A stretch of 64,000 nt of DNA from Candidatus Sungiibacteriota bacterium. GTDB taxonomy: Bacteria; Patescibacteriota; Minisyncoccia; Sungbacterales; JACQCQ01. The notes under the pieces are model-generated. The model ran no database searches, was not told the DNA's origin, and saw only the letters and a program-made list of their open reading frames with translations. The stretch covers positions 10,187 through 74,186 of the forward strand of contig JACQCQ010000012.1 in assembly GCA_016201505.1 (NCBI GenBank), read 5' to 3'. Shown in pieces: positions 2,954-54,633 of the stretch (the stretch's first letter is position 1; each line of letters opens with the position of its first letter). A program made the position numbers and the translations under genes.

Positions 2954-3145
2954 ATGAAAGCCTGTGCCATTTGCGGCAAAACTTCGTCACAAAAGGGCGT
3001 GCGCGCCCTGCTACGCGGCCACTATAATCCGACAACGACTGTTCGTGTCTACCCTAATTTGCAATGGGTAAGACTGCCAAACTCGCCTTCGCGCGTCAAA
3101 GCCTGCGCGAAGTGCATCAAGGCGCTCGCGAAGCAGAAAAAGTAA
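2954..3145 (+). CDS. rpmB: 50S ribosomal protein L28
   Basis: 63-aa ORF: MKACAICGKT..., C-x2-C...C-x2-C and basic; matches L28. Confidence 0.85.
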   Translation: MKACAICGKTSSQKGVRALLRGHYNPTTTVRVYPNLQWVRLPNSPSRVKACAKCIKALAKQKK

Positions 3146-3160
3146 CTCGGGAATTTCCTA

Positions 3161-3204
3161 AAACTCAAAAGCTCCCGCAGGCGGGAGCTTTTGAGTTTTA
3201 GTCG
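3161..3204 (+). terminator. rho-independent terminator after rpmB
   Basis: Perfect hairpin aaaactcaaaagctcccgc agg cgggagcttttgagtttt followed by T-rich sequence. Confidence 0.7.
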
Positions 3205-3509
3205 CGTATTCTGAATTTAGCGCGAACCCATTTTGAACGAAATTGCTGATGCAATTTCGCAAACCTTTCCCAAATCGGGAATGGATAAAATCAAGCAGTG
3301 AAGCCGAAATTAACCAAAAACTCCAAAATTATCACGAGCTAAAACAAGTTGCGGAAAAAATTGGAACGAACCGCCTCATCCTCAACCGGAAAGTCCAAAT
3401 GGATTTTTCCGAACCGTGGGGATTTGCCGCTTTGCGCCTTGCGCAAAGCGGAGACGCCGAGGGGCGAAGCCCCGAGGCAACCTCTTCCGAAAATTTGACT
3501 TGTCTTGAA

Positions 3510-3583
3510 TGGTCGGGGCGCGGGGAATCGAACCCCGTCTACAAGACCCCCAGCCTTGCGTACTGCCGTTATACGACGCCCCG
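3510..3583 (-). tRNA. tRNA-Pro (anticodon GGG)
   Basis: rc gives CGGGGCG..TCGTATAACGGCAGTAC..CAAGGCTGGGGGTCTTG..CGGGGTTCGATTCCCCG CGCCCCG ACCA. It has a 7-bp acceptor, a GTTCGATTCC T-arm and a CU-GGG-GG anticodon loop, and the CCA is encoded. A TATAAT box lies about 10 nt upstream on the minus strand (3593-3598). Confidence 0.85.
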
Positions 3584-3628
3584 GATGGGGTCATTATACG
3601 AGCAAAAGTAAAACGGGGCTATACCTAT

Positions 3629-3910
3629 TTAATCTTTTATCATCCACTTGCGAAAACGCCGGCGCTCAACGTATAAAACTTGCCACCAATACTTCCCCTC
3701 GAAAAAACCAAAAATCGCGCCGATAACCACCGCGCCAATAAATCCATAAGAGCCAACGAGAATCCAGGCATCCCAAGAAAAGCCCAGACTATAACGGACA
3801 AAATCTAACGTGAGAAAATATGAATACCAAATTTCCGCCAGGCCGAATATCATCGAAACTAAAAGCGTGCCGAGGAGACTAAATAACAAGATGTAAATTT
3901 TTTGTTTCAT
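3629..3910 (-). CDS. small hydrophobic membrane protein (93 aa), hypothetical
   Basis: ORF with 2-3 predicted TM segments and no recognisable SD. It sits immediately downstream (on the minus strand) of a terminator-like hairpin and a long structured leader. Confidence 0.45.
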   Translation of the reverse strand: MKQKIYILLFSLLGTLLVSMIFGLAEIWYSYFLTLDFVRYSLGFSWDAWILVGSYGFIGAVVIGAIFGFFEGKYWWQVLYVERRRFRKWMIKD

Positions 3911-3924
3911 CTTATTCTAGTATA

Positions 3925-3958
3925 CCAAAACACCCTGCCGTATGGCGGGGTGTTTTGG
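3925..3958. terminator. symmetric hairpin flanked by A-run/T-run (bidirectional terminator or attenuator)
   Basis: ccaaaacaccctgcc gtat ggcggggtgttttgg. On the minus strand it reads hairpin plus UUUUGG, followed 17 nt later by the ATG of the 3629..3910 gene. Confidence 0.6.
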
Positions 3959-3959
3959 T

Positions 3960-4719
3960 ATTAGGAATTGATGGAACCTGAGGACCGCTACGAAGCCCGG
4001 CGAGGGACTTTTAGTCCTCAAGCGGAGGGAGCTGGAGTGTTTCGCAAATATCCAAGTGGGTGACGAGATGTCGTGTAAAGCGACATTTGGGCTGTCCCCT
4101 CGTAAAATGTGATTCAGTCGAAACTAGCCATATCTCCCCCCGCTTGAGGGCTAAAATTGTTGAAAGCGCAGTGGAGAACTTTTTCAGTTCTCATATAGAG
4201 GGGATGGTGCGTTTCGCAAGAATCCAAGGTGGGTGACGTGAATGCCGGCAAGCGGCATCTGCTGTCCCCTAGTAAAGTGATTTGGGAAAGCCCAAGCCCC
4301 TCTATATAAAAACTAAAAAGAACTTTAAAAAGTAACGCATGAGCGGGAAAAAGGAACCAAGGGAACCAAAAGCCGCCGGATCATGCCCACTCTTTCAGTC
4401 TCCCGTATCTGATTGTACCTACCGCGAGTCGCGGGCTTGATCTCTCTAGGCGATGAGAATCTCGGTCATGCAGTGAGCCGCTAGCTGACAGTCATTCACC
4501 CAACTCTGCAACTCCATTATACAGGCAGAGGGCCAGTCGCTGGGGATACGATGTGGACAGGCCGTGAATGAAGCCTAGGAAAAGTGTCGAGCAAAAATGC
4601 CTTTTGGCTTTATAGTAACGAGGCGAGCCGGTTAGTCACACTTGCCCCTTGACAAATTTATTTGGCAGCGAAACTGATACTCAAAAAGATTTTAAAAGCG
4701 CGAAAAAATTCGCCAAATT
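3960..4719. ncRNA. unclassified structured noncoding region containing two tandem paralogous RNA domains (4016-4150 and 4194-4308)
   Basis: About 800 nt with no credible ORF. The two domains share gtttcgcaa(a/g)(t/a)atccaag(g)tgggtgacg...gctgtcccct(c/a)gtaaa. Each is closed by its own 11-15 bp long-range stem (cctcaagcggaggg/ccccccgcttgaggg, and tatagagggg/cccctctata). The inner hairpin shows compensatory changes: atgtcg..cgacat in copy A versus atgccg..cggcat in copy B. Confidence 0.35.
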
Positions 4720-5202
4720 CTAGAGGAGTTTAGCGACTTGGGCGAGCTCTTCGTAAATTCCTTCGATCAAATCATAGGACCGGGCTGCCTCGAGCGTCAC
4801 CCAGGCGGAATCAACAATATCCGGATCATGCAATACCACCTCACCGGATTGATATCGCGCCCAAAACGAGAGTCCGTGTACCCAAACGTTGTGCACCGGG
4901 TGACGGAAGACGTAACTAGTAAGATAGCGCAGCGTGTCGATTGCAAGACCCGTCTCCTCCATGACTTCACGCTGGATGGCTGGCTCCAGGGCGCCGTACC
5001 AGCACTGGTAGGATTTTGTGGTTGGCGGCTTTTTTACAAAATCATCTTCTTCAAACTTCCCGCCGGGAACTGTCCAAAGACCAGGGAACGCGCCTGCAGT
5101 TTCCGATCGCTTCACGATCAGCATTCTCCCATCCTCGCGCACGATAATTGCGGTCACGGGATTGATGAACAGTCGTTTTACAAGCTTATCCGAGATTTCC
5201 AT
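4720..5202 (-). CDS. NUDIX hydrolase
   Basis: Nudix box GGKFEEDDF...REVMEETGL (Gx5Ex7REUxEExGU). Start taken at the internal Met MEISDKL (5202), which leaves an 18-nt gap to ndk. Confidence 0.8.
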   Translation of the reverse strand: MEISDKLVKRLFINPVTAIIVREDGRMLIVKRSETAGAFPGLWTVPGGKFEEDDFVKKPPTTKSYQCWYGALEPAIQREVMEETGLAIDTLRYLTSYVFRHPVHNVWVHGLSFWARYQSGEVVLHDPDIVDSAWVTLEAARSYDLIEGIYEELAQVAKLL

Positions 5203-5219: not shown

Positions 5220-5816
5220 TTAAAACATAACATCCTCTTCTGATCGGGTATATGCATGAATCTGGTTCCGGCGAAACCACATGCGGAGTTCATGCGCGGC
5301 TTCTGCAGAATTACCCGACGCATGAATGATATTTCGGACAGCCCGTTTTCTGCCGTTCGCCAGTGCCGGCGAATCAATCGAGTAGTCCCCGCGGATTGTT
5401 CCCATTTCAGCCAATGCCGGAATTGTGGGACCGACGATTTTTCGCACCATTTTGATTGCGTGTACACCCTGGATCGCCATTTTTACCACTGGTCCGGAAG
5501 TCATAAAATCAACTAGCCACTTACGGACCCGCAAGCCGATTTTATACGGATCAGCCGAGCCGTATTCTTTTTTGAAATTAACCGGAATTTTAAATTCGGT
5601 GTAGCCGCGGATGGTGTTTGTCCCGAGTCCTGTAATCCAAGCCTTATCTTTCGGATAATGCAGATCCATTTCTTTGGCGGTCGCCCAAATCATTTCAAGT
5701 GCTACAATTTTAAGTCCGCGCTGTTCAATGCGGCGAATAATCTCACCGGAGAGGCCGCGCTTTACGCCGTCTGGTTTTACAATGACGAATGTCGTCTCTT
5801 CGTGAAGTTTTGGCAT
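5220..5816 (-). CDS. ndk: nucleoside diphosphate kinase with roughly 35-40 aa internal insertion
   Basis: TFVIVKPDGVKRGL..., ...DFMTSGPVV..., NIIHASGNSAEAAHELRMWF with the catalytic His. Start taken at MPKLHEE (5816). Confidence 0.85.
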   Translation of the reverse strand: MPKLHEETTFVIVKPDGVKRGLSGEIIRRIEQRGLKIVALEMIWATAKEMDLHYPKDKAWITGLGTNTIRGYTEFKIPVNFKKEYGSADPYKIGLRVRKWLVDFMTSGPVVKMAIQGVHAIKMVRKIVGPTIPALAEMGTIRGDYSIDSPALANGRKRAVRNIIHASGNSAEAAHELRMWFRRNQIHAYTRSEEDVMF

Positions 5817-6521: not shown

Positions 6522-7960
6522 CACTTAGGCCAATGTCGAGAAACGAGCCGCTGATAAAAATAAACGGAGGCGAATAAAAATGGAACCAGGCCGAAAGCCA
6601 GGGCATATGGCCCGGAAAGATTGAGCGAGGCGAAAGGAATTTTAGCGGTCAATGTAATCACACCGAGTTCATACGAAATCAGGACACGCGCCGCGAGGCC
6701 AACCAGAAACCCAAGCCAGGGGATGAGAATACCGACGGCCGCGGCGATAAAGCCAAACAACATGGTGAGCGGGATCAGGGGCAGAACGAGCAGATTCGTA
6801 ATGGGACTAATTAGTGAGACCACGCCGAAGTGCCAGGAGATGAGCGGCAAGACAAAAATTTCGGCCGAAAGCGTGGCGGCGACTGTACCACGCAAATCAA
6901 ATCCTGCGGGGATCCAGGCTAAGTATGGCTGAAGGATGGGAGTCATAATGACCAGTCCCAGTGTGGCTAAAAATGAAAGTTGAAAGGATAAATTAAAAAT
7001 GAGGAGCGAGGGATCAAGCGCCAGCATGCAAACCGCGGCGAATAAAAGCGCGTTCGTCATCTCGAAAATCCGGCCTCGGCTTTTGGCAAGGAGTCCCAGA
7101 AATCCCATGATGGCGGCGCGAACGCCGGAAGCACCGCCGGAGGCGATGAAAATAAATATTAAAATACCAAGTACCCCGCCGAGAAATCGTACCCGCGGAG
7201 AGGCGTGGAACCATAACAGGAGCCATGAAATTGAAATGGCCACAATCGTAATGTTGTAGCCGGAGAGGGCCACAATATGCGCGGTGCCGGTTTTTGAAAG
7301 CGCACCTTTCAGCGACGTCGGAAGAGAAGTTTTTTCACCGAGCAAAAGGCCGGCCATATACGCGGCAGCGGGTTCAGCAAAAATCGCATGCAGCGAACGC
7401 GTGAAGCGCTGACGGATCAAATCGGCGAGTCGAACAAATGACCAGCCGACGGATTTAACTTCAATAGTTTTAGGAAAATAAATTTCCGCTTGAGGACCGC
7501 CCGGCGAAGTATATTTTGCGGGAATATCTTTTAGTGTGCCACTCACCAAAATCTCATCGCCGCGCTGCAGTTCGGGAGCCGGAGACGAAACCAACAGAAT
7601 TTGAGCCGGTAACGATTCATCACGAACTGAAATGAGCGTTCGCTGTGCGGTGGCGGTTTTAGAGAGCGTATCCTGCACGGTCGCAAAAACGTGCACCGAC
7701 TTTGCCTCGATGCGAGCCGCCGGCAAAAAGGCAAAGTCGGCGCGCAGCGCTCCGAGAGAAAGCGCCAAAAGAAAAAATCCCAGCAGGATCAAACGGCGGC
7801 GGCGCAAAAATCCATCTATCAGTAAAAAGGCCGAAAGAACGAATGCGGCAAAGACTATGCTAAGAGAAATAAACCCAACTGACCCGATGCCAATGCCGCC
7901 AATAATCCCCGCAAATGTTGCGAGTCCGAGTCGCGAGGGAGAGATAATCAGACTATTCAT
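6521..7960 (-). CDS. comEC: ComEC/Rec2 family DNA internalisation channel (competence domain only; no beta-lactamase domain)
   Basis: Poly-TM protein with ...TAHIVALSGYNITIV..., similar to the ComEC THLLAVSGLH motif. The track ORF extends to 8065; start taken at the internal Met MNSLIISP. Confidence 0.75.
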   Translation of the reverse strand: MNSLIISPSRLGLATFAGIIGGIGIGSVGFISLSIVFAAFVLSAFLLIDGFLRRRRLILLGFFLLALSLGALRADFAFLPAARIEAKSVHVFATVQDTLSKTATAQRTLISVRDESLPAQILLVSSPAPELQRGDEILVSGTLKDIPAKYTSPGGPQAEIYFPKTIEVKSVGWSFVRLADLIRQRFTRSLHAIFAEPAAAYMAGLLLGEKTSLPTSLKGALSKTGTAHIVALSGYNITIVAISISWLLLWFHASPRVRFLGGVLGILIFIFIASGGASGVRAAIMGFLGLLAKSRGRIFEMTNALLFAAVCMLALDPSLLIFNLSFQLSFLATLGLVIMTPILQPYLAWIPAGFDLRGTVAATLSAEIFVLPLISWHFGVVSLISPITNLLVLPLIPLTMLFGFIAAAVGILIPWLGFLVGLAARVLISYELGVITLTAKIPFASLNLSGPYALAFGLVPFLFASVYFYQRLVSRHWPK

Positions 7961-30054: not shown

Positions 30055-30139
30055 TGGTGCCGGGAGAGGGAGTCGAACCCTCATGAGCTTGCGCTCGCAG
30101 GATTTTGAGTCCTGTGTGTCTGCCAGTTCCACCACCCCG
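30055..30139 (-). tRNA. tRNA-Leu (anticodon CAA), type II with long variable arm
   Basis: rc gives GCCGGGG TGGTGGAACTGGCAGACAC..CAGGACTCAAAATCCTG..(long variable arm)..GGGTTCGACTCCCTC..CCCGGC ACCA. Confidence 0.85.
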
Positions 30140-30321
30140 GCAAAATGATACGGGGCAAATCTGCCAGCCCGCCCCGCACTAATTCCCACAAATTACTTGC
30201 AAACTATATCAAAAGCTAGCTCTAGATGCTACTCGGCATATGAGAATTACATAATCGGAATTTAGTGCGGAGTTCCGCCACCGCGGCATTACAACGCGCA
30301 TACTATTTATACAATCCTCGT

Positions 30322-54110: not shown

Positions 54111-54528
54111 GGGGACGCATTTGATTCGACGGATCATTTACATTTAGGCGAAACGCAGACCGAGAAGTTCGGCCAACTCGCTTGCCCTTCCATAGCCCTT
54201 GGCGAAGGAGGGTAAAAGTTCCGAACAATAATACGTGCAAACGTATTCAAATTTGATGGTGCTTTGGCACCCGCTATGGCGTAAGTTATAGCTGCTTCCT
54301 TGCGAAAGAATCGCAAGCATCGGACCATGATGCCTCTTGGTGGGTTCCCGGTGTTATATCGAGGCTGGACTCTCGCCAACCGGTAACGGGAGCGACGAAT
54401 ACCGGAAACGATCGCTGAGTATGTTGCAGGATGTGAAGCTCGCGATTCGTACATAATCCTGCTATGTCTGTAATCATCGTTTTGTTTAGATGAAGATTCG
54501 GACGAGGAGTCACTCTCCTCCGTCTCCA
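54111..54528 (+). ncRNA. ssrA: tmRNA (transfer-messenger RNA)
   Basis: 5' GGGGACGCAUUUGAUUCGACGG matches the tmRNA 5' consensus. Acceptor GGGGACG/CGUCUCC has a G3:U70 wobble. T-arm GAGGA GUCACUC UCCUC, then discriminator A; CCA is not encoded. An internal reading frame GCA AAC GUA UUC AAA UUU GAU GGU GCU UUG GCA CCC GCU AUG GCG UAA gives tag ANVFKFDGALAPAMA. It lies immediately downstream of smpB. Confidence 0.8.
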
Positions 54529-54633
54529 TTAGAACGAATGCAAAAATTAAAGGGCAAAATGCAAAATTTAGGTATCGCCTCGCGATGATTTTTAAATTGT
54601 CATTTTAATTTTTGATATTTAAACTCTAATTTT

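Follow-up and report, generated by a model that had tools for sequence, protein, structure and literature searches.

In a 64,000-nucleotide stretch of a Candidatus Sungiibacteriota genome (contig JACQCQ010000012.1, positions 10,187 to 74,186; referred to here as the window), the genes for a NUDIX protein (4720-5202/5280, minus strand) and for a 93-amino-acid (aa) protein (3629-3910, minus strand) are separated by a gap of about 800 nucleotides (nt). As the initial annotation of this region had stated, the gap lacks credible open reading frames (ORFs), the longest one on either strand not exceeding 58 aa. It contains two tandem units of a structured RNA, unit B (4189-4311, minus strand), which would come first in the transcript, and unit A (4016-4149, minus strand), which would come second. 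These units appear to represent a new RNA family that is absent from Rfam 15 and would belong to a familiar general kind, the stand-alone structured bacterial small RNAs (sRNAs). The NUDIX protein (4720-5202) is 100% identical to a database protein of Candidatus Sungbacteria from the candidate phyla radiation (CPR)/Patescibacteria, and two Logan contigs match the window identically over 1.6 kb.

Units A and B are paralogous copies of one RNA fold. A repeat finder returned three blocks shared between them, namely 4028-4056 with 4200-4228 (79% identical), 4056-4068 with 4229-4241 (92%), and 4091-4109 with 4261-4279 (89%), and the GCTGTCCCCTNGTAAA block occurs twice in the window, where 0.07 occurrences are expected by chance. 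The same tool recovered a long closing stem for each unit, 4009-4031/4134-4156 in unit A (23 nt, 91% complementary) and 4181-4213/4287-4319 in unit B (33 nt, 79% complementary). The two paralogous units, a closing stem of their own for each, and an internal hairpin that differs between the copies (ATGTCG/CGACAT in A, ATGCCG/CGGCAT in B) had all been proposed in the initial annotation and are present as described. Compared with shuffled sequences, positions 3915-4330 fold with z = -8.05 on the plus strand and z = -9.83 on the minus strand. Covariance-model matches reach 100.3 bits (E = 1e-18) for unit B and 99.2 bits (E = 2e-18) for unit A, and when the entire 64 kb were searched with the model and no filters, these two units were the only matches.

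Both units are rod-shaped and share the same fold, and unit length as given by covariance-model matches is 115-135 nt. The outermost element is P1, a long purine/pyrimidine closing helix (AGAGGGG/CCCCUCU; 4297-4308/4192-4203 in unit B, 4134-4150/4016-4031 in unit A), followed by P2 (GUUUCG/CGAAAC; 4286-4291/4209-4215 in B, 4119-4124/4039-4044 in A). Inside P2 lies an asymmetric internal loop, whose 5' strand is A/U-rich and variable in sequence and length and whose 3' strand is conserved (4217-4230 in unit B), reading AC(C)UUGGAUNCUUG in close relatives. P3 (4264-4269/4231-4237 in B, 4094-4099/4058-4064 in A) has the form GGG-NNN/NNN-A-CCC with a conserved bulged A (GUC-A-CCC), and P4 (4253-4259/4241-4247 in B, 4081-4087/4067-4073 in A) is a variable apical hairpin with stable loop caps. 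Constant across units are the internal loops, the bulged A, and the G-C pairs of P1 and P3, while the apical loops vary. A short hairpin, P5, often follows the unit. After unit B it reads GAGAAC-loop-GUUCUC (4174-4192, minus strand), and by inspection the same hairpin is found at four of the related loci described below (L009, L011, L010, and L025). A P5-like hairpin, GAGGACU-AAA-AGUCCCUC (4002-4019, minus strand), is located after unit A. P5 covaries by inspection, with AGGCC/GGCCU in L035 and GAGGAC/GUCCCUC after unit A. The hairpin at 4002-4019 is an alternative to an outer extension of P1 suggested in the initial annotation (4009-4017/4148-4156), which contains an A.C mismatch on the minus strand.

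A search for homologues in related genomes had been recommended and was successful. On contigs with NUDIX orthologues of 54-66% identity, 13 unit copies were found through NUDIX synteny in 8 related uncultured Sungbacteria-like (CPR) lineages. According to nhmmer and the covariance model, every copy is located directly downstream of a NUDIX orthologue and on the NUDIX strand. Two units are present in the window, L009, L010, and L025, one unit in L011-14 and L035, one more divergent unit in L029 and L030-34, and a partial unit in L024. A gene-free stretch follows the NUDIX gene in all orthologue contigs except L015, which stops just after this gene, and L024, which comprises only about 240 nt of downstream sequence with the start of one unit. 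A covariance model built from 9 units recognized L035, which was not in the model, with E = 1e-11, L029 with E = 0.0016, and L030 with E = 0.14. A single unit appears to constitute the functional gene, of which relatives hold one or two copies; in the most distant relatives, promoter, one unit, and U-tract together span about 150 nt. Copies are 61-68% identical within a genome and, with the near-identical L010 and L025 set aside, 53-68% identical between genomes. These values fit ancient as well as independent duplications.

The next NUDIX clade (51% identity, L018-23) has neither gap nor unit, and a NUDIX-based search of viral contigs yielded only relatives of about 30% identity. Scans of viral contigs with GTTTCGCAANNATCCAAG gave 6 matches, all due to chance, and with CTTGGATNYTTGCGAAAN{6,20}CCCTCT none. 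The GTDB genomes and the JGI metagenomes were scanned with one strict pattern, CCCAN{0,1}CTTGGATNYTTGCGAAA, resulting in 2 chance matches in coding regions and 3 chance matches, respectively.

The helices are supported by covariation. RNAalifold predicted P1, P2, P3, and P4 from a MAFFT-based alignment of 9 units. Run on 10 units aligned to the covariance model, it recovered these four helices and added P2a, 3 bp long (columns 39-41 with 121-123). In the 10-unit alignment 92.6% of the cells are standard pairs, compared to 44-57% if the 3' partners are slid by 1-3 columns. Changes on both sides affect 15 out of 33 pairs (3-7 when slid) and 30 cells (5-9 when slid), and none out of 500 shuffles reached the observed covariation values. 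This alignment was fitted to the structure and is biased in its favour; the slid controls and the independent MAFFT-based prediction agree with it. When MAFFT was applied to all 12 units, P1 was misaligned and no consensus fold resulted; the covariance-model-fitted alignment was used in its place. With the distant units included, the outermost P2 pair is GC in 6 and CG in 5 units, and one P3 pair occurs as GC (5), AT (4), CG (2), and TA (1), so that up to four pair types are found at one position. The change between AUGUCG/CGACAU in unit A and AUGCCG/CGGCAU in unit B is one case of this general compensatory pattern. The earlier view that the region preserves an RNA fold and is neither coding nor junk DNA is supported, and the compensatory changes noted between the two copies extend to 13 copies in 8 lineages. 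The covariation-supported conserved core is a feature expected of riboswitches too; since covariation is common to every structured RNA, it does not discriminate between families.

The RNA is encoded on the minus strand of the window, a point that the initial annotation had left unsettled. In the orientation of the NUDIX strand, 24 helix cells are G.U and 8 are A.C. The P4 loops form stable tetraloops on the minus strand only, namely C(UUCG)G in unit 1 of L009, C(UCCG)G in L030, and GGGA in L035. In unit 2 of L010, AUGCCG/UGGCGU includes two wobble pairs at a place where its close relative L025 has perfect pairs. The TATAAT box upstream and the terminators downstream also read correctly only in the minus orientation.

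Signals resembling those of an independent transcription unit surround the two units. A TATAAT -10 box is located at 4516-4521 (minus strand), which would place the transcription start near 4509. It is found in 8 out of 9 loci, the ninth, L029, having TATAAG instead. According to a table of the promoter regions of these 9 loci, a ATCCCCAGC block conserved in the close relatives occupies the -35 position (4539-4547, minus strand), 17-18 nt upstream of the -10 box. This block is unlike TTGACA, has equivalents in L009, L010, L025, L024, and L011, and could serve either as a promoter element particular to this lineage or as the binding site of a regulator. L030 contains a near-consensus GTGACA-N16-TATAAT about 12 nt before its unit. 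Directly after the NUDIX stop codon, a weak hairpin followed by a U-run (GGCGAAUUUUUUCGCGCUUUU, 4694-4714, minus strand; -6.3 kcal/mol) is likely to be the NUDIX terminator, and judged by its sequence the corresponding hairpin of L009 is much stronger. Termination at this site would separate the RNA from the NUDIX transcript. The initial annotation had considered, as an alternative, a stand-alone large non-coding RNA (ncRNA) read out of the NUDIX gene. Its stand-alone character is in line with our data, while the terminator-like hairpin after the stop codon and the widespread TATAAT box argue against transcription from the NUDIX gene. Just past the putative NUDIX terminator and about 130 nt upstream of the RNA promoter, another conserved box, TTGTCAAG, is found at 4645-4656 (minus strand). 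Its TGTCAAG is invariant in an alignment of the window, L009, L010, and L025 and present in L011; a correctly spaced -10 box does not follow it.

Between the presumed start and unit B lies a leader of about 200 nt (4312-4509, minus strand) without conserved structure. Positions 4719-4310 had been described as further structured sequence. We found that 4300-4725 folds no better than shuffled sequences (z = -0.84 and +0.49 on the two strands), and in the relatives there is no consensus structure, the consensus fold of the leader reaching only -0.93 kcal/mol. Across 7 loci, the TATAAT box lies about 30-290 nt away from the first unit; in L030 the distance shrinks to about 12 nt. Long leaders are confined to two-unit genomes, and no leader homologue was found outside of these. 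Lacking a consensus structure and a homologue elsewhere, the region 4310-4719 is best described as a promoter plus a leader of variable length. No homology was detected between the leader and a second ORF-poor region in L029. The possibility that the leader is a decayed third unit was dismissed, as the covariance model gave no match to such a unit in the window at E<=10. A pyrimidine-rich tract (UUUUC...UUUUUUCCG; 4343-4372, minus strand) closes the long leader just before the first unit, and the same tract occurs in the two-unit genomes L010 (~4410-4440), L025, and L009 (~1925-1950). Because no convincing hairpin precedes it, this tract is unlike a terminator.

On the other side of the units, a hairpin consisting of A-tract, GC-rich stem, and U-tract is located at 3922-3961 (minus strand; -29 kcal/mol, z = -7.65) and resembles an intrinsic terminator. 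Its arms, 3922-3939/3944-3961, are 94% complementary according to the repeat finder, and its GC core CACCCCGCC/GGCAGGGUG is followed by UUUUGGUAU on the minus strand. A GC-rich stem-loop with a U-run on the transcribed strand, as is characteristic of Rho-independent terminators, is thus present, and this putative terminator probably defines the 3'-end of the RNA. A simple terminator scan did not call the hairpin because the A-tract and the U-tract also pair. Similar hairpins close the locus in the window and in L009, L010, L011, and L035, five lineages altogether, and every locus with sufficient sequence ends in one; in L029 and L030 a U-run directly follows the P1 helix. The hairpin itself had been noted in the initial annotation together with a U-tract; the U-run is in fact part of the 3' arm of the extended hairpin, and the spacing to the ATG of the 93-aa gene is 11 nt rather than 17 nt. 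In L009, an uncalled ORF of 94 aa on the opposite strand (2374-2658, minus) lies between unit 2 and the terminator and may explain part of the longer gap of this locus.

As previously judged by eye, no known family explains the region. A search of positions 3500-5000 against the Rfam 15 covariance models at E<=10 resulted only in terminator-hairpin noise (12-25 bits versus cut-offs of 42-289), the segment 4005-4320 alone gave two chance matches of 17-19 bits, and in seven homologous loci searched at E<=1 the matches were a single tRNA and two due to chance, which did not fall on the units. Full-text literature searches on ncRNAs or 6S RNA of CPR, Patescibacteria, or Sungbacteria yielded no description of such an RNA. 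The ykkC/guanidine-I riboswitch shares the CUAGGG motif and its subtype 2c is linked to NUDIX genes; it was rejected because there was no model match and because the RNA is located downstream, not upstream, of the NUDIX gene. The fluoride riboswitch, the 4.5S RNA of the signal recognition particle (SRP), T-box UGGN, K-turn, and the 11-nt tetraloop receptor were rejected by eye. The idea that the units or the leader encode a conserved small ORF or a leader peptide was likewise discarded, as start codons are not conserved.

We assign a probability of roughly 60% to the interpretation that the locus encodes a stand-alone, rod-shaped structured sRNA with its own promoter and terminator, which acts in trans as a protein-binding scaffold or decoy. 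A minus-strand transcript of about 590 nt (~4509 to 3922) would be produced from its own promoter, end at an intrinsic terminator, and carry the two tandem paralogous domains of about 120-135 nt. Each unit would then act in trans as a scaffold or decoy for a protein that recognizes the conserved internal loops and the bulged A, and tandem duplication would raise dose or valency. A protein-binding RNA is preferred because conservation is seen in the internal loops and the bulged A but does not extend to the apical loops. This is the pattern of 6S, SRP, and Y RNA and differs from that of seed-type sRNAs, and in our judgement such anatomy is typical of protein-binding RNAs.

Several known RNAs share parts of this anatomy. 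In Y RNA/YrlA and SRP 4.5S RNA, too, a long helix joins the 5'- and 3'-ends, bulges and internal loops that are conserved offer candidate sites for protein recognition, and there is a 3' U-run comparable to that of the minimal versions L029 and L030. The units differ from these RNAs in that they show no sequence or model similarity to them, contain no tRNA-like module, and have an apical loop that is not conserved, whereas a GNAR loop is required in SRP RNA. Tandem duplication of bacterial sRNA genes is known from PrrF1/PrrF2, Qrr, and OmrA/OmrB, which likewise are head-to-tail paralogues at one locus whose copy number varies among genomes. In contrast to these short seed-plus-terminator RNAs with one promoter each, the units described here are five-helix rods of 120-135 nt which apparently share one promoter and one terminator.

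The protein-binding interpretation can be specified further. We consider it unlikely that the RNA is a subunit of a so far undescribed regulatory ribonucleoprotein specific to this CPR lineage, either as a mini 6S analogue titrating RNA polymerase in these ultrasmall bacteria or as a decoy for another global regulator, with dosage set by duplication. The 6S-like version is the most concrete form of the protein-binding interpretation, and would be a miniature 6S-like RNA in which the rod with its asymmetric loop mimics an open promoter and sequesters the RNA polymerase holoenzyme. Like 6S RNA (ssrS; Rfam RF00013 and relatives), the units seem to form a stand-alone gene of the abundant type and fold into an irregular rod, which is closed by pairing of its 5'- and 3'-ends. 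An asymmetric internal loop is situated between stable helices, and there is little sequence conservation outside the loops. Both 6S RNA and the units have G-C-rich helices flanking the internal loop and an apical stem that may vary; the gene has a strong -10 box and adjoins tRNA genes. 6S RNAs are said to change so quickly that searches by sequence miss them in many phyla. Nevertheless, a query of 316 nt yielded no match to the Rfam 6S models even at E<=10. Known 6S RNAs reportedly form rods in which stable helices flank a large central bubble and which measure about 150-200 nt, whereas the units of 115-135 nt are 20-40% shorter. The loop left open in the units is far smaller than that of 6S RNA, measuring only about 9 x 6 nt once the probable P2a pairs, and the apical arm of about 13-17 bp is short for a mimic of the -35 region. 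We know of no tandem 6S copies, and the distribution is apparently limited to one small clade. We consider a 6S-like function unlikely.

Equally unlikely is the initial proposal of a tandem-aptamer riboswitch or attenuator, in which the units would be aptamers and 3922-3961 a regulated terminator controlling the 93-aa membrane protein. This protein is predicted to have two transmembrane (TM) segments and has no Pfam or NCBIfam match. In favor of this proposal, the order of units, terminator, and homologous 2-TM gene (41% identity) is shared by the window and L035, conserved internal-loop nucleotides with variable peripheral hairpins are also typical of aptamers, and two adjacent homologous domains in one transcript are known from tandem-aptamer riboswitches such as glycine and the NAD+-I nadA motif. 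However, the homologous gene is restricted to these two loci. An unrelated small 1-TM protein is encoded downstream in L009, a DksA/TraR-type protein in L030, and a convergent gene in L029. In L011, the terminator faces a convergent tRNA followed by a convergent L28-like gene, so that the RNA would be the sole product of its transcription unit. The copy number varies between one and two, and since single units suffice in four lineages (L011, L035, L029, and L030), cooperative sensing by tandem units cannot be what defines the element. P1 and the terminator are 54 nt apart, and by inspection, which was not exhaustive, neither an expression platform nor an alternative pairing of the P1 3' strand with 3922-3961 was found. 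For the terminator arms, the repeat table lists a single upstream partner, a weak match of 14 nt (79%). Moreover, in the main internal loop neither the sequence nor the length of the 5' strand is constant, and no riboswitch family matches at E<=10. The membrane gene also appears to have a promoter of its own with virtually no 5'-UTR, as TGGTATACT, an extended -10-like box overlapping the 3' arm of the terminator (3919-3927, minus strand), lies 8 nt before its ATG, and L035 has TTGTATACA at the same place (~985-995) before the homologous gene. Together with the absence of a Shine-Dalgarno sequence, this suggests an independent, leaderless mRNA for the membrane protein.

A base-pairing sRNA, in which CCCAC(C)UU, resembling an anti-Shine-Dalgarno sequence, or the CCCCUCU of P1 would pair with ribosome-binding sites of target mRNAs, is slightly less probable still. 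Such an sRNA would fit a stand-alone gene with a terminator, C-rich seeds targeting Shine-Dalgarno sequences are common in Gram-positive sRNAs, and nearly all units preserve ACCCAC(C)U, with slight deviations in unit 2 of L009 and in L011. But P3 engages the CCC of this segment in pairing, P1 does so with CCCCUCU, and the remaining loop strand is not conserved in the distant L029, L030, and L035. Three complementary sites were found in the window versus 1.4 expected, one of them being the locus itself and none convincing, and the structural conservation is far above the usual level of seed-type sRNAs.

A selfish or DNA-level element, be it a palindromic repeat of the MITE/REP/ERIC type, as the long imperfect inverted repeats in tandem might suggest, or an array of the type III toxin-antitoxin kind before a toxin gene, is very improbable, given only two copies in 64 kb with model filters off, the same syntenic site in all relatives, the strand-specific G.U excess, and UNCG and GNRA RNA tetraloops on one strand. 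The order of promoter, tandem RNA repeats, terminator, and small gene directly after them is indeed that of ToxIN-type loci, but antitoxin repeats measure 34-45 nt (about 36 nt in ToxIN) and not 115-135 nt, ToxIN has 2-5.5 copies rather than 1-2, and the 2-TM protein encoded downstream is not an endoribonuclease and is absent in most relatives.

Some points weigh against the preferred interpretation as a stand-alone protein-binding RNA. In the window and L035 the same small membrane gene begins about 10-35 nt past the terminator, and some coupling by read-through is conceivable in these two genomes. The evidence for transcription and for the transcript ends consists of sequence signals. The sample comprises 8 lineages, every one recovered through NUDIX synteny, and for this reason an association with other contexts would not be visible. 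As the GTDB and JGI scans gave chance matches only, the family is either very narrow or fast-evolving. Finally, the only link between the RNA and the NUDIX enzyme is synteny among fairly close relatives. All NCBIfam matches of the NUDIX protein were far below cut-offs and too weak for a subfamily assignment, the best one, partial, being NAD+ diphosphatase.

Some features of the neighborhood and of the related loci were recorded in addition. The mechanically derived NUDIX ORF starts with GTG at 5280 (186 aa), while the database protein and all orthologues start with ATG at 5202 (160 aa), which is preceded by AGAGGGGG. Other RNAs detected in the window with Rfam 15 at gathering thresholds were only a tmRNA (54111-54531, plus strand, 62 bits), in agreement with the ssrA gene annotated earlier at 54111, and two tRNAs, one at 30058-30141 (minus strand) and a tRNA-Pro(GGG) at 3510-3583 (minus strand). 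A perfect hairpin of A-tract, GC-stem, and U-tract (aaaactcaaaagctcccgcaggcgggagcttttgagtttt, 3158-3200) follows an L28-like gene (2954-3145, plus strand) and is probably a bidirectional terminator. In L011, an intact tRNA (2797-2867; anticodon by eye Pro(GGG)) lies beside a tRNA-like 3' half (2722-2790), whose acceptor and T-arm resemble the tRNA-Pro of the window and which is interrupted by about 30 nt. The latter could be an intron-containing or a decayed tRNA; group I introns have been reported in tRNAs of Patescibacteria (PMC13011429). In L010, long inverted repeats (CCGGTTAGTGAAAACTCGAT ... ATCGAGTTTCTACTACCGGG) occur in an unannotated stretch past the RNA terminator (4940-5180), at the end of the contig. 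In L029, the single unit is followed by a second TATAAT (GGGGGGATATAATGG) and about 600 nt without a called gene (~6700-7350); this stretch includes ORFs of 97-171 aa and has no similarity to the leader of the window.

The value of the finding is limited by the narrow distribution in 8 metagenomic lineages and by the lack of a functional handle. It does, however, put right an annotation error that is easily made, in which the RNA is taken for a riboswitch of a transporter-like gene. The genomes of Patescibacteria (CPR) are tiny, and almost nothing is known about regulation by RNA in these bacteria. The covariation is clear, the strand is settled, the boundaries of the gene are defined, and variants with one and with two copies occur naturally, so that the new family would offer a concrete target for metatranscriptomics and biochemistry in these bacteria.

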